A stretch of DNA of 47,865 nt from Shigella phage Henu10. Below are positions 29,000 through 36,415 of this stretch, piece by piece. The notes beneath the pieces are model-generated. The model searched no databases. It saw nothing but the letters and a program-made list of their open reading frames with translations, and had not been told where the DNA came from. Position 1 is the first letter of the stretch; every line of letters starts with the position of its first letter. Location: the sequence record OQ791282. One strand, 5' to 3'. The position numbers and the translations under genes were made by a program.

Positions 29000-29812
29000 T
29001 TAAAAATTGCAAACACACTTGTTTTCTTCAAAGTTTAGCTCTCCTGTAAAAGGGAGCTTAGAAAGCTCTACTAAATCGTCAATACTTTTATGACCTCTAA
29101 AAGAGGTATTGCCATATTTCCCCTCCATTTTTCTATACCAGTCTATAAAACGAGTTCCCTTTCGGATAACATCTATTAGATTGGCGTCAGATTTTTTCCA
29201 ACATAGTTCGCAGTTTCCATACTTGTTGTGTATTTCCAACTTGAATGGCTGACTATCCCAAAATTTATTTAGTTCCATTTGTCCTATTGGAAATTGAAAA
29301 TCAGTCAAAAGTGGAAATATCCTTATTTTGTCTTCCTTGATTTCTGCCCAACTTATTCGCTTGGGCATATCTTCTTTACGAAATCCAATAGCTTTTAAGT
29401 AACTATTCACACCGAAAATATCATCTGCAATTTTTTTAGCAGGTAATGTTTTAAGCATTTCGCTACAAAAAGGGGCTTCAAGGTTGGGCATACCATTAAA
29501 TGCTCCTTTATTTTTGTGTGCAATAGCATTCTCAAATGGTTTAGCAGTCATATCTAAGTTATCCCAATCTACTAGCTTGTAACTAACCCCAACACCCATT
29601 TCTGATGAATATACGCCTTCAATTTTAACAAGTGGAATATTCCAATGCTTCTCTATATTTTTGAGAAAATCTATCGTCTCTGGTCGCTCCATTCCTGTAT
29701 TGCAGAAAACAAACAACTTATTGTAATCCTTATATTTTTCGGATACTTGGATATGTCGTGCCATCATAGCGGAACTTCTCCCTCCAGACACTGTTATTAT
29801 TAAATTTTTCAT
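29000..29812 (-). CDS. PP-loop ATPase (PAPS reductase-like) with C-terminal Cys cluster
   Basis: N-terminal IITVSGGRSSAMMARH PP-loop; C-terminal CELCW...C.C cysteines. Confidence 0.55.
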   Translation of the reverse strand: MKNLIITVSGGRSSAMMARHIQVSEKYKDYNKLFVFCNTGMERPETIDFLKNIEKHWNIPLVKIEGVYSSEMGVGVSYKLVDWDNLDMTAKPFENAIAHKNKGAFNGMPNLEAPFCSEMLKTLPAKKIADDIFGVNSYLKAIGFRKEDMPKRISWAEIKEDKIRIFPLLTDFQFPIGQMELNKFWDSQPFKLEIHNKYGNCELCWKKSDANLIDVIRKGTRFIDWYRKMEGKYGNTSFRGHKSIDDLVELSKLPFTGELNFEENKCVCNF

Positions 29813-29837
29813 AGTTTTTCTGGTAACACATTTTGCT

Positions 29838-30125
29838 TTATGAATTCACAATGATAGCTTCTACTCCTGCAACAGCTTCTGGTTTTAATTCCAAAAAGTC
29901 TGTGCCTATTTGGTTGGCTTTGTTTTTACATATTTCTGCTAAATCCTTGTTGATTTCGCAGAAAAGAACCTCCTTAGCTCCGTACTCTTTCAGATAATCT
30001 ATAATATTACCTTTTCCTGCACTTGGCTCTAAAATAGTTTTGTTATTTACATCTAACTCCATAAGGTCTAAAACCTCTCTAGGAGTAGGGTAAAAGTCTT
30101 GGTTGAATAGGTTTTGGTATTTCAT
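29838..30125 (-). CDS. SAM-dependent N6-adenine DNA methyltransferase-like N-terminal fragment
   Basis: FYPTPREVLDLM followed by ILEPSAGKGN resembles motif X and motif I of gamma-class amino-methyltransferases; ORF stops (…AIIVNS) before any NPPY-type catalytic motif. Confidence 0.4.
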   Translation of the reverse strand: MKYQNLFNQDFYPTPREVLDLMELDVNNKTILEPSAGKGNIIDYLKEYGAKEVLFCEINKDLAEICKNKANQIGTDFLELKPEAVAGVEAIIVNS

Positions 30126-30234
30126 TTTGCTTTTTTATTAGGATTATTTCTTCTCTTGGGCTTTTGCTCTAGGCTTTGCCCTCTTTTCAGAAAGACCACA
30201 GGTCTATTGAGTTTCTTGGCTTCTTCTAATACCT

Positions 30235-30558
30235 CTAAGGCTTTTCTTCGTTGCTCCTTGCTTCGTTGGAGTGTAATTCCTTCCATTCTTTGGTGTCTTT
30301 TATGGTTAGTATTTCTTTTGGGAATTTCTTTTGTTTTTCAAGCTCTACAAAGTTTTTCAGTTCTTCGCTAAAAACTGTTTTCTTTTTAGCTAACTCGGCA
30401 ATCATTTTGAGTGGGAGGGAGGGGGCTTTAACCTTGCAATCTCTGCTCTCAGTTGTATATTTTCTATCGAAAGCCGTTTTATCATCGTGAATAAGTCTTT
30501 GGTTTGGTAATTCACTTGTTCTGATATTTGCTGTATTTGCTGTATTCCTTTGTACCAT
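30235..30558 (-). CDS. Hypothetical protein (overlaps 30402..30803 in another frame)
   Basis: ORF track only. Confidence 0.25.
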   Translation of the reverse strand: MVQRNTANTANIRTSELPNQRLIHDDKTAFDRKYTTESRDCKVKAPSLPLKMIAELAKKKTVFSEELKNFVELEKQKKFPKEILTIKDTKEWKELHSNEARSNEEKP

Positions 30559-30803
30559 TTTGTTTTTTTTAGTTTTTCTAATCCTTTAAGACCTTCTTCT
30601 GGACTTAAAGGGTGTTTTTGTAACACTTTCAAATCACATTCAGAGAGGTATTTATGAGACCAATCTGTAATGAATCTTATTTTATCACTCATCAACTTCT
30701 GATAATGAACATCTGTTACACTTTCTGTTTTTGCGTTGGCGTCCATTACAAAGTTTATGAACGCTTCTTTCACTTCGTCAGAAAGGCATCTCGTCTGTTT
30801 CAT
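30402..30803 (-). CDS. Hypothetical protein
   Basis: 133-aa ORF immediately downstream of helicase gene. Confidence 0.35.
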   Translation of the reverse strand: MKQTRCLSDEVKEAFINFVMDANAKTESVTDVHYQKLMSDKIRFITDWSHKYLSECDLKVLQKHPLSPEEGLKGLEKLKKTKWYKGIQQIQQISEQVNYQTKDLFTMIKRLSIENIQLRAEIARLKPPPSHSK

Positions 30804-31833
30804 AATTTATTGTATTAAATGCTTCACTTGGAGTGGTTCTAAATTCTTCTATTTTAAACTCTTGATTGGGTCTTCTGTCCTTGAACTTTGTGCATTGTGC
30901 AAACTGCACTTTGTCGTCAAACATCTCATAATATCGTCTGCTTCTCCAATCGTAGTAAATGGAGTAAATCCCCCATTTAGCAACCCCTTCAGGCTTAATT
31001 TTCAGGATATGTATATTTGTCTGATTTTCGGCTACATACTCCTCGTCTCCCTCTGGGTTTTCGTTTGGCTCTGGTCTATGGACTAAAATTTGCAACATCG
31101 CTTTTCTGTTGTTATTTTTTCCTCCATAGAACTCGTCAGCTAAAGCTGTGAGTTTTATTCTCTTTCCGCTTTTGGTTGTTACTTTAGCCGTCTCCGCCAC
31201 ATGGTTCACTATGATGTCGAACCTGTTATTTTCCTCTGCTTCTAAATTTATTCTGTTCAATACTCTAAGCACCTCACTCGCTTTAGGCTCAAAGTCGTCT
31301 ATATCGTAAATGGGGTCTATCACAAGGCAGTCAAACTTTATCCCATAATTAGCCTCCGCCATTGCTAACTCTTTGTAGATGTTATCTAGCTTCTGATAGG
31401 AGGTATCTTTTCTATCTTGCTTGAAAATATACAAGTGTCTTAAAATAAACTCTTCTGCCTCTGCTACTTCCTCATCTGTCATAGCGTACTTGTTGGGCTT
31501 TCCATCTGGTCTGACTTTAGTGTATGGCTTACCTTGATACATTCCGCAAAACTGCGTGAAAACTTTCTCTACATCTCCGCTTTCTGTGGTAAATAAAGCC
31601 ACTTTGAAATGGTGCTTTTCAATAAGCTGCATTACCATTTCGTTAGTTACTTGTGATTTACCGTGATTGGGTTCGCCACCTATTAGCAAAGTACATTTCC
31701 TGCTTCCCATTAACCATTTTCCATTGTTAAAGTCATTCCAAGTTTCAAACGAAAAATAGACTGGGTCTATCTCTCCCTTTGTGCGGAGTTTTCGCATCTG
31801 TGAATGAACCGAAGCTAAGTCTATAAACGCCAT
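30778..31833 (-). CDS. DnaB-like / RecA-fold replicative ATPase-helicase
   Basis: Walker A LLIGGEPNHGKSQ and Walker B FDCLVIDPIYDIDD. Confidence 0.6.
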   Translation of the reverse strand: MAFIDLASVHSQMRKLRTKGEIDPVYFSFETWNDFNNGKWLMGSRKCTLLIGGEPNHGKSQVTNEMVMQLIEKHHFKVALFTTESGDVEKVFTQFCGMYQGKPYTKVRPDGKPNKYAMTDEEVAEAEEFILRHLYIFKQDRKDTSYQKLDNIYKELAMAEANYGIKFDCLVIDPIYDIDDFEPKASEVLRVLNRINLEAEENNRFDIIVNHVAETAKVTTKSGKRIKLTALADEFYGGKNNNRKAMLQILVHRPEPNENPEGDEEYVAENQTNIHILKIKPEGVAKWGIYSIYYDWRSRRYYEMFDDKVQFAQCTKFKDRRPNQEFKIEEFRTTPSEAFNTINYETDEMPF

Positions 31834-31845
31834 AATTCTAATTTT

Positions 31846-32622
31846 TTAAACGCTCCAAATTCCGTAAGTCTTCTTCTTTTCTGTGGCTTTTTGAGAGGTT
31901 GTATTTTTGTACTTGTCTAGGGTTACGGGACGGCTAAAAAATTCAGGTGTTAGGTATTTATAGCCTTGTTCCATATGGTATTTGTCCTTTACCGCATTTT
32001 CGATAGCCTCCAGTATATCCTCTTTTGTGTAGCCTTCTTTCAATCTAGCCTTGTACTTTCTCTTTATTTGGTCGTTTATCGTTTTAAACTTGCGTTTTGT
32101 TTTGTCGCTTATGAAGTTTAATAGCTTTTCAAAGTCTATATCGTTATTGGGCTTCGCTTTTCCCTCTTCTTCCAAATCCGAAAGAGACCCTTTTGGTTCT
32201 TTTTCTAAAAGAACATTTAGTTTAGTTTTATTTAGTTTATTGTTAGTATCAGAAACTGTATCAAGAACCGTATCAGAAACCGTGTCAATATCTGTATCAG
32301 AAACTGTATCAAGAACCGTGTCAGCTGTTGATACAGTTGGAAAAACATATTTAGTTTGTCCGTCTATTCCCTTGCTTCTTTTTTGCGGTGTTTTAAAGTC
32401 AATAAGTCCTAATTGCATCAATCTATTTCTAGCATCTCTAACAGTATTAACTGACATTCCAAGTGCGATACTTAAATGTCTGTCGGAATGCCCAAAGGGT
32501 TGCTTCCAGCCCAACGAATTACAAGTATGCAACAGATAGAAGTATAATCTTGTGTCGTTAGGGCTGATGCAACGCTCTAAGTTGCATTGCCAAAATTTGT
32601 TTATGAGAACTATATAATTCAT
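31846..32622 (-). CDS. Replication initiation protein (N-terminal HTH, repeat linker, conserved phage C-terminal domain)
   Basis: Peptide repeats DTVLDTVSDTDIDTVSDTVLDTVSDT encoded by iteron-like DNA repeats; C-terminal region resembles conserved phage replication-protein C-terminal domains. Confidence 0.5.
   Translation of the reverse strand: MNYIVLINKFWQCNLERCISPNDTRLYFYLLHTCNSLGWKQPFGHSDRHLSIALGMSVNTVRDARNRLMQLGLIDFKTPQKRSKGIDGQTKYVFPTVSTADTVLDTVSDTDIDTVSDTVLDTVSDTNNKLNKTKLNVLLEKEPKGSLSDLEEEGKAKPNNDIDFEKLLNFISDKTKRKFKTINDQIKRKYKARLKEGYTKEDILEAIENAVKDKYHMEQGYKYLTPEFFSRPVTLDKYKNTTSQKATEKKKTYGIWSV
32246..32336. repeat. Iteron-like direct repeats (putative origin) inside replication gene
   Basis: GTATCAGAAACTGTATCAAGAACCGT at 32246..32271 and 32294..32319, plus further GTATCA-type units and an inverted TGATAC. 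Confidence 0.5.
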
Positions 32623-32645
32623 ATTTTTTTATTTCCTATCGTGGC

Positions 32646-32837
32646 TTAAAGTACCTTTACCTTTCCATTTTTTTCTTTATACTTAACTTCTGTATTTATT
32701 ATCTCGTACTTCCCATTTGGCAGTCTATTGACCGCTCTTATCTTAGCGGTGAGGGTGTTTTTCTTTTTCTTTTTTGAAATGAGTACCATTTGTTTTTTCT
32801 TTTGCTTCTCTGATTGCCTCTGTGATATTTTTCGCAT
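32646..32837 (-). CDS. Hypothetical basic protein
   Basis: 63-aa ORF. Confidence 0.3.
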   Translation of the reverse strand: MRKISQRQSEKQKKKQMVLISKKKKKNTLTAKIRAVNRLPNGKYEIINTEVKYKEKNGKVKVL

Positions 32838-32925
32838 CTAGGTAAATGGTCCTCTCGCTATTCCAAATGAAAAAAGTGGTACCCATTTTACCTAGATTAA
32901 AATTACTCCCTTCTATTTTCATTAG

Positions 32926-33222
32926 TTAGAAAGGCAAATCGTCGTCGTCCTGAAAATCATCGGCATTTGCTTCCTGTATTTTAGGTGTTGATTTTCTTAG
33001 ATTTCCGATGAATACAGATTTTATATTATCCTTATGATATTCTTCTTTTAATGGAGAGGATATAGAACCGTCATTTTCGTATTTGTCAGGTTCATCATTG
33101 ATATATACATTGACATTGATATATCGTGTTCCGTTTTCGTGTTTAAAAGTTTTTAGTTTACCTGATTTAAGATTTTCTAATAGTTTGTCGTAGTTAATAC
33201 TACCGTAAAATGATTGTACCAT
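32926..33222 (-). CDS. Small protein with SSB-type acidic C-terminal tail (DDDDLPF)
   Basis: C-terminus ...DDFQDDDDLPF resembles the SSB C-terminal interaction tip (E. coli SSB ends DDDIPF). Confidence 0.4.
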   Translation of the reverse strand: MVQSFYGSINYDKLLENLKSGKLKTFKHENGTRYINVNVYINDEPDKYENDGSISSPLKEEYHKDNIKSVFIGNLRKSTPKIQEANADDFQDDDDLPF

Positions 33223-33246
33223 TGGTTTTTATATTTTTAAAAATTA

Positions 33247-34005
33247 TTATTCAATTACTAAATAGCCTTCTCTTTCGTTTTTATAAATGAGACCTTTCCA
33301 CGCTAATAGATTGCTCTTGTCTTTAAATCTTGTAATTCTATGGTCGTTCATTGCTAAATCCATATACTCTACATCTGTAATTAAAGGTGCTTCTTCTAAG
33401 TGCGATTTTATTGTGTCTCTCATCTCAAAAAAGGTTTTTGCTCGTTCCTTAATCTCTGTTTGAAATTCTATATCTGCATCAAATTCTTTGATATGGTATC
33501 TTTGGTCTAATGGAATATCAAACTCTATTTTGTTGCCCCATTCGTCCATAACATTAGAGGTAAGGTAATAGACTAAATACCCTTTGTTAAATCCCGTCGC
33601 TAACATTTGCATCTGGACTTGTGCTAAGTAGTAGGCAGGTACTTTATCAATATTTTGTTTAAAAGTGTATATAGTGTATGGACATTTTATATCCATACAA
33701 TAATTGTCTATGGGGTTAATTACATCAGGAGTAGCCCATAATCCTTTGTCTATTTCAAAACTAACATCTGACTGATAAACAGTATTTTGAAAATTAGGCT
33801 GTATAATTACATTATAGGCTTCTTCTTCATTAAAAATGCCGTGTTGCATTGCTGTTGTTGTAAGATGTTTTTTTTGACCTAAAATCAACTCTAAGGCTTT
33901 TTCGTAAGCAAGGGTTTGAGCGGTCTTTGCCTTTAGCCCTTGTTGGGTAAATAACGCTCCAATTTCAGAAGCTCCAAGTCCTCCAAGTTTGTTTATTTCT
34001 TCCAT
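33247..34005 (-). CDS. YqaJ-like recombination exonuclease
   Basis: N-terminal GGLGASEIGALF motif; paired with ERF gene upstream. Confidence 0.6.
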   Translation of the reverse strand: MEEINKLGGLGASEIGALFTQQGLKAKTAQTLAYEKALELILGQKKHLTTTAMQHGIFNEEEAYNVIIQPNFQNTVYQSDVSFEIDKGLWATPDVINPIDNYCMDIKCPYTIYTFKQNIDKVPAYYLAQVQMQMLATGFNKGYLVYYLTSNVMDEWGNKIEFDIPLDQRYHIKEFDADIEFQTEIKERAKTFFEMRDTIKSHLEEAPLITDVEYMDLAMNDHRITRFKDKSNLLAWKGLIYKNEREGYLVIE

Positions 34006-34577
34006 TAGTTAATTCCTAATTTTTTGAGTTCAGCTTCTGTTTCTTTGGATACCTTGTATTTTTTTCTAATATCGCTAACTGTAAATGTTTTACCTTCGTC
34101 TATGCTTGATACTAATTTAGCCCATTGTTCTGTGTCTTTATTTAGCCACATTGCAGGCTCATTTGCTTTTTGTATCTTGGGTTTCGTGTCTAATACTTGC
34201 TTGTGTTCGTTAGTGTCAGCGTCTTTAGTATCATCTATTAAAAACAAACCATTTAAAGCATATTTGCGTGCATAAGATGACGACGCACCGAATGTTTGTG
34301 ATATATCCATTCCTTTTTTTGTGGGGTCAATACCAGCTTGAGCTTTTACGGATATTTGTGTGTTTTTATCACTAATTGTCGCTGTTGCCTCGCAATAAAT
34401 AATATCACCTATTTGCTTTATTTCATCGGTAATAACTAATGTGCAATCGTGTTTTAGTAATATTGGCTTTAAAGCCTCCAATATATCCTCACAACTTCTG
34501 TACTTGTATTTACCAAAGCTATTATATTGCCCTTTTGGGGCTTTTAGCTCTGATTGTATTTTGATGAGTTTTTCCAT
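34005..34577 (-). CDS. ERF-family single-strand annealing protein
   Basis: N-terminal region FGKYKYRSCEDILEALKP typical of ERF. Confidence 0.6.
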   Translation of the reverse strand: MEKLIKIQSELKAPKGQYNSFGKYKYRSCEDILEALKPILLKHDCTLVITDEIKQIGDIIYCEATATISDKNTQISVKAQAGIDPTKKGMDISQTFGASSSYARKYALNGLFLIDDTKDADTNEHKQVLDTKPKIQKANEPAMWLNKDTEQWAKLVSSIDEGKTFTVSDIRKKYKVSKETEAELKKLGIN

Positions 34578-34691
34578 TTTGTATATTTTTAATTGTTGAT
34601 TTTGTTTCTTGGGGGTTACGAAAAAATGCCGTAACCTTTCTTAACAGGCAATAGCCATAGGTAGTAACCTATTCGTTTTGCCTTTTGGGTT

Positions 34692-34877
34692 TTATATTGT
34701 TTTATCCTCGCTTTCATCTCTGAAAAAGTTTGTGATTTCTTGCTCTTTTACATTCATAAAAAGGCTTATCAATAAAAGCCCTACCGCAGACATCAAAGCC
34801 ATTGTATCGTGGCTTTCTGATACGGCGAAAGCGTAAATAATCGCCGTTACTGTTGTTATTTTTGATAGTGTTTTCAT
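34692..34877 (-). CDS. Small membrane protein
   Basis: 61 aa with two hydrophobic segments. Confidence 0.3.
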   Translation of the reverse strand: MKTLSKITTVTAIIYAFAVSESHDTMALMSAVGLLLISLFMNVKEQEITNFFRDESEDKTI

Positions 34878-34973
34878 TTTTTGGACTTTTTAAAGAAGTA
34901 GTCTAGTATATCTTTCTCAAACTCGGTGGCTTCTTGGTATTTTTTACCGTTGATAAGCCAATAGCCGTTTTGA

Positions 34974-35288
34974 TTATTTATTTTTATTAAAGTCATTTTT
35001 TAGGTCTGCTAGATGATACTCTAGTTCTAGGTCTTCTTCTTGGTTTTCGTATAGCTTTTGTTTCGCTATATTTACCCAGCCTTTTTGGGCTTCTTCTGAC
35101 ATTTGGAGGTCTTTTAGGCAAAGATTTTCATCTGTGATATTTACCTCTCCAAATTCATCTACTGTTACTAAAACAGTGTCGTCTTCGTCTATTGCGAACC
35201 ATACGGTAGGGGTAGTATTTCTACCCTCGTAATTGAACCCAAAATCGTTAAATTTTAAGGTTTCTAAGTTTTGTTGTATCTTTGCCAT
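34974..35288 (-). CDS. Hypothetical acidic protein
   Basis: 104-aa ORF. Confidence 0.4.
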   Translation of the reverse strand: MAKIQQNLETLKFNDFGFNYEGRNTTPTVWFAIDEDDTVLVTVDEFGEVNITDENLCLKDLQMSEEAQKGWVNIAKQKLYENQEEDLELEYHLADLKNDFNKNK

Positions 35289-35343
35289 ACTTTTGATTTT
35301 TTAAGGATTTAACATTCTTATTAAACTTGCTCTCTAATTGCCG

Positions 35344-35553
35344 TTAGAGGGCTTTTTTTCTTCTTTTTCTCTTTGGTTTTGGATATATTTTATACCTTTC
35401 TTTGGAATCAAACATAGCGTGCAACCTCTTCTTTCTACTTTCTTTGCTTTCCGCTACCCCTAACATCCAGCGATGAATTTTCTCTGTCTCTTTAGGGTCG
35501 CACACTAATGTTAATTGTGTTCTAAATATTGGTATAAGTTGCTCTGCTGTCAT
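35344..35553 (-). CDS. Hypothetical protein with basic C-terminus
   Basis: 69 aa; start overlaps stop of Cro-like ORF (ATGA). Confidence 0.4.
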   Translation of the reverse strand: MTAEQLIPIFRTQLTLVCDPKETEKIHRWMLGVAESKESRKKRLHAMFDSKERYKIYPKPKRKRRKKAL

Positions 35554-35729
35554 ATCTCAATCTCGTCTATTTCTTTTTTTAAACATTCTTTTGCTCTTTT
35601 TCTAATGTTCTTTGCAAGTTCACTCTCTGTGAAATATTTTAGAGCGTTAGTAATAGTCTGTTGAGTTACCCCAAACTCTTCTCTTAAGATTTTGTGATAT
35701 TTACTTGGTAGGCTTATTCTTTTTTTCAT
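35550..35729 (-). CDS. Cro-like HTH regulator (59 aa, below ORF-track cutoff)
   Basis: Translation MKKRISLPSKYHKILREEFGVTQQTITNALKYFTESELAKNIRKRAKECLKKEIDEIEI; first gene of the leftward early operon, divergent from the CI-like gene. Confidence 0.5.
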   Translation of the reverse strand: MKKRISLPSKYHKILREEFGVTQQTITNALKYFTESELAKNIRKRAKECLKKEIDEIEI

Positions 35730-35746
35730 AACTTTAACCCGTTAAA

Positions 35747-35809
35747 TTGATAGTGCAAATATAATACAAAATTGTATTATATAAAAATAATAATGATACA
35801 ATTCTGTAT
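35747..35809. promoter_or_regulatory. Early promoter/operator region
   Basis: Minus-strand TATATTTG (35763..35756) inside the 19-mer TTGATAGTGCAAATATAAT, also present at 40704..40722; inverted repeats ATACAA-N2-TTGTAT (35764..35777) and ATACA-N4-TGTAT (35796..35809). Confidence 0.5.
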
Positions 35810-35848
35810 TAAACAATTTAATTAACTGAAAATCAATATTAAAAATTT

Positions 35849-36415
35849 ATGAGAAGCTTTAGATTAAGCATTATTTCCTTAGTAATTTCTCTAATCGCTA
35901 TTTCTTTGGTGTATTTTAGACCTAGCCCTATTGAAATAGATATGTTTAATTCTATCATTACCATTCTGGCTCTTCTCATAACCTTACTAATAGGATATCA
36001 GATTTTCCAAATAATTGATTTTAAGCAAGAAAAAACCAACTTATTAAATGAAGTTGATAAAAAATTTAAGGCTACCCAAGAAGAGTTTGATAAGTCTATG
36101 CTAGAGATGAAAGGGGCAAATACAGTAATGTACAGCCATTTTTTTCAGTATTATATGGAGGGACAAAATGATTATGGTGTACTTTCCACATTTTCTGATA
36201 TTGTAATAAATAACTCACATAATGAAGATTTGTGCAAAGTAATGCTAAGAGCTGTTTTAGAATATACAGAAACGGGAATAACATTTAAACACGAATATGA
36301 ACAGAAAGAAATAATGAAATTATTTGAAGCAAAATCTATAGATTTTTTAAAAGCAATAGACAAAGAAAAATTTGAACTATTAAGAGAACGACTAGATATG
36401 TCATCAATTCGTTAG
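35849..36415 (+). CDS. Membrane protein (superinfection-exclusion candidate)
   Basis: Two N-terminal transmembrane helices; sits between the cro-like and cI-like genes. Confidence 0.4.
   Translation: MRSFRLSIISLVISLIAISLVYFRPSPIEIDMFNSIITILALLITLLIGYQIFQIIDFKQEKTNLLNEVDKKFKATQEEFDKSMLEMKGANTVMYSHFFQYYMEGQNDYGVLSTFSDIVINNSHNEDLCKVMLRAVLEYTETGITFKHEYEQKEIMKLFEAKSIDFLKAIDKEKFELLRERLDMSSIR

Follow-up and report, generated by a model that had tools for sequence, protein, structure and literature searches.

In phage lambda, the replication origin lies in the middle of gene O, where, reading with transcription, an AT-rich tract comes after the iterons, and in Stx phages six iterons, against four in lambda, come with 13 extra amino acids (PMC7466680). 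By HHpred, the N-terminus of lambda O is assigned to HTH_36 and its C-terminus to Phg_2220_C (PMC5509034). The oriL of SPP1 consists of direct repeats together with an unwinding element that is AT-rich, within gene 38, is bound by gp38, and is followed by the helicase genes (PMC6316719), and TP901-1 ORF13 and Tuc2009 Rep2009 are described as binding repeats inside their own genes (PMC8965321). Here, we analysed the 47,865 nucleotides (nt) of sequence record OQ791282, Shigella phage Henu10, hereafter called the window, and describe a repeat array located inside the gene of a replication initiator of 258 amino acids (aa; 31846..32622, minus strand). Region 29000-36000 of Henu10 is 100% identical to vB_RanS_CRP34, PT03, PT15, PT33, CRP2, PJR4 and others, and the window is that of a siphophage of Riemerella anatipestifer, a duck and poultry pathogen of the Bacteroidota. 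By analogy with the systems above, we propose that the origin of this phage probably lies within its own initiator gene, in the part that codes for the linker.

Repeat array and initiator protein

In coding direction, the locus is laid out as an inverted unit, a 5-nt spacer, seven 12-nt direct units, a 32-nt AT-rich tract and a 19-nt palindrome. The 26-nt sequence GTATCAGAAACTGTATCAAGAACCGT, reported as occurring twice in the initial annotation, is indeed present in exactly two copies (32246-32271 and 32294-32319; none expected in shuffled sequences). The further GTATCA-type units and the inverted TGATAC mentioned there correspond to seven GTRTCA cores, at 32246, 32258, 32270, 32282, 32294, 32306 and 32318, spaced by exactly 12 nt, and to a single inverted core at 32329-32334. 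On the coding (minus) strand, the presumed iterons form seven head-to-tail 12-nt units (32241..32324; consensus Y-TGAYAC-RGTT-Y), which read in order CTGACACGGTTC, TTGATACAGTTT, CTGATACAGATA, TTGACACGGTTT, CTGATACGGTTC, TTGATACAGTTT and CTGATACTAACA, the unit adjoining the AT tract retaining the TGATAC core only. The interval first given for the repeats, 32246-32336, does hold the array, although the register of the units, 32241-32324, begins slightly further to the left. Tandem Repeats Finder (TRF) describes the array with a period of 12 (5.5 copies) and of 24 (3.3 copies) and a score of 116, the highest of any tandem array across the 47.9-kb window, in which no other array has at least four copies of a unit of at least 9 nt; two 9-nt arrays of 3.4 copies score 32-34. 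The 10-mer TGAYACNGTT occurs six times in the window, always within 32254-32338, compared with a mean of 0.40 in shuffles, none of which reached six. No second cluster of the unit, and no distant copy such as the oriR of SPP1, was found anywhere in the 47.9-kb window.

The direct units are preceded by an inverted unit (32328..32338; TTGATACAGTT on the plus strand, AACTGTATCAA on the coding strand), which stands head-to-head with the first of them. The match is perfect over 11/11 positions (AACTGTATCAA / TTGATACAGTT), the best inverted 10-mer matching at 10/10, a value that 0/200 shuffles reached, and the hexamer cores of the pair are separated by 5 nt (ACAGC). We presume that this inverted unit is a dimer nucleation site. 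At the opposite end, the AT-rich flank that the initial annotation had advised looking for lies directly after the repeats. This tract, the presumed DNA-unwinding element (32214..32245, 32 nt, GC 15.6%), is composed of (TAAAC)n on the coding strand (TRF period 5, 4.8 copies) and belongs, by stability, to the lowest 1.2% of all 32-mers in the window. It is followed by the palindrome GTTCTTTTAGAAAAAGAAC (32196..32214, coding strand), an exact match with 8-base-pair (bp) arms and a 3-nt loop, which encodes VLLEKEP and is predicted to form a hairpin in single-stranded DNA. Iterons followed by an AT-rich tract in mid-gene are found here in the same order as in lambda, and the likeness to the ori arrangement of gene O drawn in the initial annotation is therefore borne out.

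The gene that contains the array, described from the list of open reading frames (ORFs), Pfam, PHROG, an AlphaFold 2 (AF2) model and GenBank annotations, encodes a winged-helix N-domain, a disordered linker specified by the repeats, and a Phg_2220_C C-domain. It is labelled 'hypothetical protein' in all identical phage records of GenBank. Its PHROG matches to replication-initiation, O-like and DnaD-like families, together with the winged-helix model and Phg_2220_C, agree with the earlier assignment as a replication initiator. The N-domain (aa 1-95; 32338..32622, minus strand), the presumed iteron binder, was modelled by AlphaFold as a single winged helix of H-H-E-H-H-E-E topology, with a predicted local distance difference test (pLDDT) score of 84-98, exceeding 90 in the winged helix, from an alignment of database homologue fragments of 50-160 aa obtained by profile search. 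Foldseek relates this model to the winged helices of MarR, ArsR/SmtB and CodY, including DNA complexes, with probability ~1 and E ~1e-2. By sequence, sub-threshold matches include GntR, RP-C (E = 0.08) and generic winged-helix families, and a PDB sequence search returned generic winged-helix regulators only, at E >= 0.05. Among relatives of the N-domain, DUF6945 is matched at E <= 0.01 in 5/18 and HTH_36 in 7/18, and a GWxxP motif is invariant in the family.

The repeats (32241-32338) encode aa 96-127 of 258, as the peptide TVSTA-DTVL-DTVS-DTDI-DTVS-DTVL-DTVS-DT between the N- and C-terminal domains. Both the translation and the low model confidence (pLDDT <50 over linker aa 116-159) agree with the DTVSDT-repeat linker noted earlier between an N-terminal helix-turn-helix (HTH) and a C-terminal domain, and since pLDDT is below 50 in the repeat-encoded segment, the peptide is free to follow the DNA. 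The Phg_2220_C domain (PF09524; aa 168-238; 31909..32121, minus strand), the presumed helicase recruiter, scores 29.1 bits, against a Pfam cut-off of 27, and is helical in the model; NCBIfam TIGR02220 scores 31.3 bits, under its cut-off of 66.65. Outside Bacteroidota phages, the closest C-domain match is a Streptococcus phage 'replication initiation protein'. PHROG 186, 'DnaD-like helicase loader', matches aa 2-223 at 6.8e-11, with no Pfam DnaB_2 match. Directly downstream lies a helicase-like gene of 351 aa and RecA fold (30778..31833, minus strand), the presumed partner of the C-domain, which matches PHROG 5482 (3e-119), 'DNA primase/helicase' (8.8e-23) and 'DnaB-like replicative helicase' (4.3e-5), and whose translation contains the Walker A motif GGEPNHGKS.

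By analogy with lambda O, SPP1 gp38 and the TP901-1/Tuc2009 proteins, the locus would constitute an intragenic origin of the lambda O/SPP1 gp38 type, for which initiator binding, oligomerization, melting, helicase contact and origin activity are expected. The N-terminal winged helix would recognize TGAYAC(R)GTT units, and a dimer would nucleate on the head-to-head pair at the N-domain-proximal end of the array. More copies could then fill the head-to-tail units, one per 12 bp or about one per helical turn, and the resulting nucleoprotein complex may strain and open the adjacent 32-bp AT-rich TAAAC tract. The Phg_2220_C C-domain would finally recruit the helicase encoded directly downstream.

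Conservation, constraint and exchange of the array

Scanning IMG/VR with an alignment of four N-domain sequences yielded at least 490 confirmed loci, and the 80 best of these, together with three GenBank phages, gave 48 distinct proteins with 21 distinct N-domains. Absence of the repeats from functional homologues, which the initial annotation would have taken as a sign against an origin, was not observed: with arrays counted from a TRF score of at least 50, an 11/12-nt array was found in 16 of the 21 distinct N-domains, at the same position, centred on aa 89-140. Fifteen arrays have 12 nt as their smallest period, one has 11 nt and one has 16 nt, and flanking DNA contains one array in 57 kb. 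The five N-domains without a called array have, by inspection, degenerate or wider-spaced copies of similar units. The unit is TGAYACRGTTYY in the window, CTGATACGGTTA in L013, TGATACGTTGTC in L018, TGATACGTTTAG in L020, TGATACCCAAAG in L025, CACCTAACCTAC in L026 and L030, TGACACCTAACC in L077, AAAGTTGAACCT in L078, AAGTAAAACGGT in the L031 group and TTAAGTAAACCC in Bacteroides phage BS-TP3, while Tenacibaculum phage Gundel_1 (L011 2782-2851) has seven RGGAACA cores, one every 11 nt. N-domains at least 49% identical to that of the window mostly retain the TGATAC core, and the C-domains of the family are heterogeneous. In the Firmicutes phages PLE3 and AP45, whose N-domains are ~35% identical and annotated as DnaD-like, the units (AGTAGGCAAC and TTCCGAAGTTAG, respectively) follow a 12-nt period and each array is succeeded by a TAAAC-rich tract.

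Most of the lineages also have a matching inverted unit of lineage-specific sequence, located upstream of the direct units at ~5 nt from the first of them. It matches at 10/10 positions in the window and Dulem virus 40, at 9/10 in L020 and L031, and at 8/10 in L018, L077, L087, L010, L023 and Gundel_1, and it is generally located 13-17 nt before the start of the TRF array; the distance is 27 nt in the window and 20 nt in Gundel_1, and low-scoring lineages also depart from this range. AP45 has, by inspection, two inverted/direct pairs. The AT tract is likewise kept across lineages with unrelated units, either as the core ATAAACTAAA(C/T), which the tract of the window contains, or as TAAAC repeats (peptide NKLNKTK / KHKLN). 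This core adjoins the arrays of L014, L018, L022, L025, L026, L030, L077, L174 and L175, and is also present in Firmicutes phages. Its leucine is always encoded by CTA, a minor codon whose share among leucines is 14% in this phage and 0-27% in the remainder of the same genes. Many database relatives (P0003, P0006, P0014, P0016) are only 80-160 aa long, corresponding to the N-domain and the repeats, some of them on long contigs, and P0003 departs from L023 inside an A-rich tract in a frameshift-like manner. These short relatives could be genuine initiators that are truncated or split, or the product of sequencing errors in homopolymers.

If selection acted on the peptide, changes would gather at third codon positions. 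Differences between units are instead spread evenly over the three positions (20, 25 and 22 variable columns of 68 each; minority letters 32, 40 and 39) and form contiguous blocks beside contiguous invariant cores. In the window, the first two bases of the fourth codon of the unit vary (CTT, TCT and ATT, encoding L, S and I), and its third base T, which is the first base of the TGAYAC core, is invariant. In Gundel_1 and GRNRAP2, whose arrays keep a strict 11-nt period within coding sequence, the unit is translated in all three frames and the peptide repeats only every 33 nt. The encoded peptides have nothing in common between lineages (DTVS, LSKP, PNLP, SKTV, SEVS). Moreover, slippage is unable to create inverted copies, and hence does not account for the recurrent inverted unit, and a palindrome that covaries is the hallmark of a site bound by a dimer. 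The even spread over codon positions and the out-of-frame 11-nt arrays therefore favour, at the level of sequence comparison, a constraint on the repeats as DNA and not as peptide.

A tblastn search with the 258-aa protein divides its relatives into clean groups that share either the N-domain or the C-domain. CRP5 and CRP6 are 100% identical to the window protein over aa 1-95, and their repeats and AT tract are nearly identical to those of the window by base, with one synonymous GAC/GAT difference in a core; their C-domain is unrelated, and the downstream gene encodes a 461-aa DnaB-type helicase. Reciprocally, GRNRAP2, CRP19, PJA1 and GDF21 are 98-100% identical over aa 143-258 and share the 351-aa helicase with the window, and have DUF6291-type N-domains and repeats unlike those of the window: nine AACC-core units with a strict 11-nt period in GRNRAP2 (L003 2359-2459), and TAGCAA units ~10 nt apart in CRP19. 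The homology breakpoints with CRP5/6 and with GRNRAP2/CRP19 coincide at ~32213/32214, between the AT tract and the palindrome, whose iteron-proximal end marks this junction. The metagenomic L018 and L027, in turn, share 95% of the C-domain and 47% of the N-domain, with different units and a breakpoint just past the AT tract. Because the swaps in CRP5/6, GRNRAP2/CRP19 and L018/L027 split there, the N-domain, repeats and AT tract appear to be inherited together, as do, separately from them, the C-domain and helicase. That one breakpoint was used repeatedly is more telling than the linkage itself, which adjacency alone would partly give.

Copy number also varies. The array of CRP5 (L001 990-1180, equivalent to window 32241-32338) is longer by exactly 96 nt, that is, two 48-nt blocks or eight units, and this expansion lengthens the linker by 32 aa; the array is of the short form in CRP6 and in the window. 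The putative iterons are thus naturally polymorphic in copy number. In the same gene slot, the N-domains of Riemerella phages (RAP44 L005 2936-3835, L003, L004) come from two unrelated families at least, DUF6945-like and DUF6291, and are combined with three C-domain/helicase partners; the DUF6291 versions share a AATGTAAATGAT (NVND) repeat beside the junction. The palindrome GTTCTTTTAGAAAAAGAAC is common to the window, GRNRAP2, CRP19 and RAP44, the last with a third C-domain, which differ on both of its sides; CRP5/6 lack it. It could act as a linker for crossovers, or be part of the origin, comparable to the palindrome beside the AT tract of lambda.

A broader possibility is that these loci represent a large, undescribed family of self-encoding origins in phages of Bacteroidota and some Firmicutes, in which the winged helix polymerizes once per 12 bp, starting at a head-to-head nucleation site, toward the unwinding element and the ATAAACTAAA(C/T) core or the TAAAC repeats are themselves a sequence-specific signal. 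Beyond mere AT-richness, the core would then serve, for example, single-strand binding by the initiator or helicase loading, and the same bases would be constrained at once as protein code, binding site and melting site. As a whole, we regard this broader scheme as tentative and rather doubtful.

Weighing of alternative explanations

Taken together, the layout of the locus, the fold of the N-domain, the constraint at the DNA level, the conservation of the array and the linkage of the modules lead us to consider it likely that the array is the phage origin, or at least the binding array of the initiator with its adjoining unwinding element. Several observations weigh against this conclusion. 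The N-domain remains below threshold for DUF6945 (PF22182; whole protein 20.8 bits, isolated domain 24.3 bits, cut-off 28) and for HTH_36 (16.8 bits, cut-off 25), and hhalign of its profile with the single lambda O sequence gives E = 0.096, aligning GWxxP and the HTH. Nine other stretches within 29-36 kb are as unstable as the AT tract, which is only in the top 1.2%. Cumulative GC skew, suggested as a check in the initial annotation, carries no origin signal near 32.3 kb and follows gene orientation; it is uninformative at this locus, not contradictory. The covariation of repeats and N-domains is partly explained by physical adjacency and shared descent. Finally, a 12-nt period is a multiple of three, making this sequence by itself compatible with a peptide repeat, and recent slippage alone would suffice for the perfectly identical units of L013, L018 and L026 and for the 96 nt gained by CRP5. 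Slippage is indeed active in some relatives, as the perfect arrays indicate.

These last points would fit a slippage-prone, low-complexity peptide linker without DNA function, in place of which any flexible spacer would be tolerated: the segment is predicted to be disordered, the 12-nt period is in frame, and copy number varies between near-identical phages, with perfect copies in some relatives. We nevertheless consider this explanation improbable. A mere spacer would not be expected to have a period of 12 in 15 arrays and 11 in one, instead of periods spread over 3, 6, 9, 15 and 18, nor 11-nt arrays that run out of frame in Gundel_1 and GRNRAP2. It is also at odds with the lack of a third-position excess (20/25/22 of 68), with cores that are contiguous blocks of DNA, with peptides unlike each other across lineages, and with the same AT-rich element always following the array; the inverted copy, which is beyond the reach of slippage, yet recurs with covarying sequence. 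Alternatively, the units may be true N-domain sites used for autoregulation, copy control, handcuffing or a transcription roadblock, with the origin located elsewhere. Plasmid iterons have such secondary roles, equally AT-rich stretches are found nearby (e.g., 33219-33266 and 35753-35813), and SPP1 has a second origin outside the gene (PMC6316719). This alternative appears unlikely, if slightly less so than the linker, given that the window contains neither a second unit cluster nor another array of at least four copies of a unit of at least 9 nt, that a conserved AT-rich tract on the C-domain (downstream) side of the array is the signature of an unwinding origin, and that lambda, SPP1, TP901-1 and Tuc2009 all have intragenic repeats as their origin (PMC7466680, PMC6316719, PMC8965321).

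Very unlikely, in our view, is that the repeats, AT tract and palindrome are mainly a recombination hot spot, a 'linker' for the exchange of initiator modules. Such a role would account for three independent exchanges that break just past the AT tract and for the palindrome common to the window, GRNRAP2, CRP19 and RAP44, in phages that encode Erf and the YqaJ exonuclease. It leaves unexplained, however, why the units are specific to lineages, why the period is fixed at 11/12 nt, why there is an inverted starter and why the cores are conserved at the level of DNA. CRP5/6 were exchanged at the same junction without the palindrome, and the breakpoint lies where selection would leave it if the N-domain must keep its sites.

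Gene context and comparison with described origins

The initiator gene belongs to a recombination and replication module. Upstream, in the same operon-like block, are located the genes of an Erf annealing protein (34005-34577), a YqaJ exonuclease (33247-34005) and a 98-aa protein (32926-33222, minus strand) without a Pfam match. The C-terminal end of the latter, DDDDLPF, resembles the acidic tip of bacterial single-strand binding (SSB) proteins, and DUF3127 or single-strand binding protein is the annotation given to its equivalents in RAP44 and GDF21; the 98-aa protein is probably the SSB of the phage. Two small minus-strand ORFs of 63 aa (32646-32837) and 59 aa (32743-32922), just upstream of the initiator gene, overlap by ~95 nt, the second matching PHROG 30131, a family of unknown function. 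Further downstream, a PAPS-reductase-family gene (29000-29812, minus strand) adjoins a 95-aa methyltransferase-like ORF (29838-30125, minus strand); the methyltransferase is full length in relatives (1395 nt in CRP5/6), and region 29000-30125 may be a module for DNA modification whose methylase is truncated or mosaic. Cumulative GC and AT skews fall nearly monotonically along the window because nearly all genes are on the minus strand, and reverse only at ~36-40 kb, at plus-strand genes. A known RNA element at the locus was rejected, since an Rfam scan of 31500-33200 gave no match at E <= 1, and a promoter and terminator scan gave results at shuffle level, with a sigma-70 consensus that is unsuited to Bacteroidota.

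To our knowledge, no phage origin has been mapped in Bacteroidota. Our literature search found no mapped Bacteroidota phage origin and no described Riemerella phage origin, and did not find DUF6945, DUF6291 or DUF7833 mentioned. The present analysis assigns a function to a 'hypothetical protein' gene of ~17 sequenced Riemerella phages and hundreds of metagenomic relatives, and provides a concrete candidate origin for phages of a poultry pathogen. The cassette of initiator and origin could provide genetic tools with a replicon for use in Riemerella and related Flavobacteriia, and the natural series of N-domains and units is a ready data set on changes in winged-helix DNA specificity. In lactococci, cloned origins of this kind have given phage-encoded resistance (PMC8965321).

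Compared with lambda O, the window protein is predicted to have a similar division of labour, with a DNA-binding N-terminus and a C-terminus coupled to a helicase-delivery partner, and similarly placed repeats: lambda iterons encode aa 117-145 of the 299-aa O, between the domains, and the present ones aa 96-127 of 258. In both cases a change in copy number is tolerated and alters protein length, by 13 aa between Stx phages and lambda and by 32 aa in CRP5. The repeats differ in design. Lambda has four annotated 18-nt units at 20-24 nt spacing, whereas seven contiguous 12-nt units and an inverted starter are found here; each lambda iteron has internal dyad symmetry. The partner gene encodes the helicase itself, in contrast to the P-type loader of lambda, and the host belongs to the Bacteroidota, unlike that of lambda. 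Phage_rep_O (PF04492), the defining domain of lambda O, which scores 123 bits with it, gave no match in the window protein even at E <= 10, and BLASTP gave no match either. In lambdoid hybrids, the N-terminus of O goes with the iterons and its C-terminus with P, a pattern that is matched here on the sole basis of natural recombinants.

SPP1 differs from the present locus by a second copy of its site (oriR) 13 kb away, where no second cluster exists in the window, and by a separate loader, gp39, next to the DnaB-type helicase gp40. The C-terminal domain points to another group: Phg_2220_C is typical of the lactococcal P335 replisome organizers (TP901-1 ORF13, Tuc2009 Rep2009, r1t ORF11), which the window protein also resembles by direct repeats in its own gene and a helicase gene immediately downstream. 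Pfam detects no N-terminal domain of the replisome-organizer type in it, the N-domain being a DUF6945-like winged helix. [quoted passage not shown] In these plasmids, specificity pairs the initiator with its iterons, which are typically of 17-22 bp; they are non-coding, unlike the repeats described here, and the window protein, modelled with a single winged helix, has no match to Rep_3 or WH1-WH2. To specialists in replication, the principle of an origin carried by the gene of its own initiator will be unsurprising, as it is that of lambda, SPP1 and TP901-1; what sets this locus apart is a different winged-helix family and a compact layout of 12-bp iterons.

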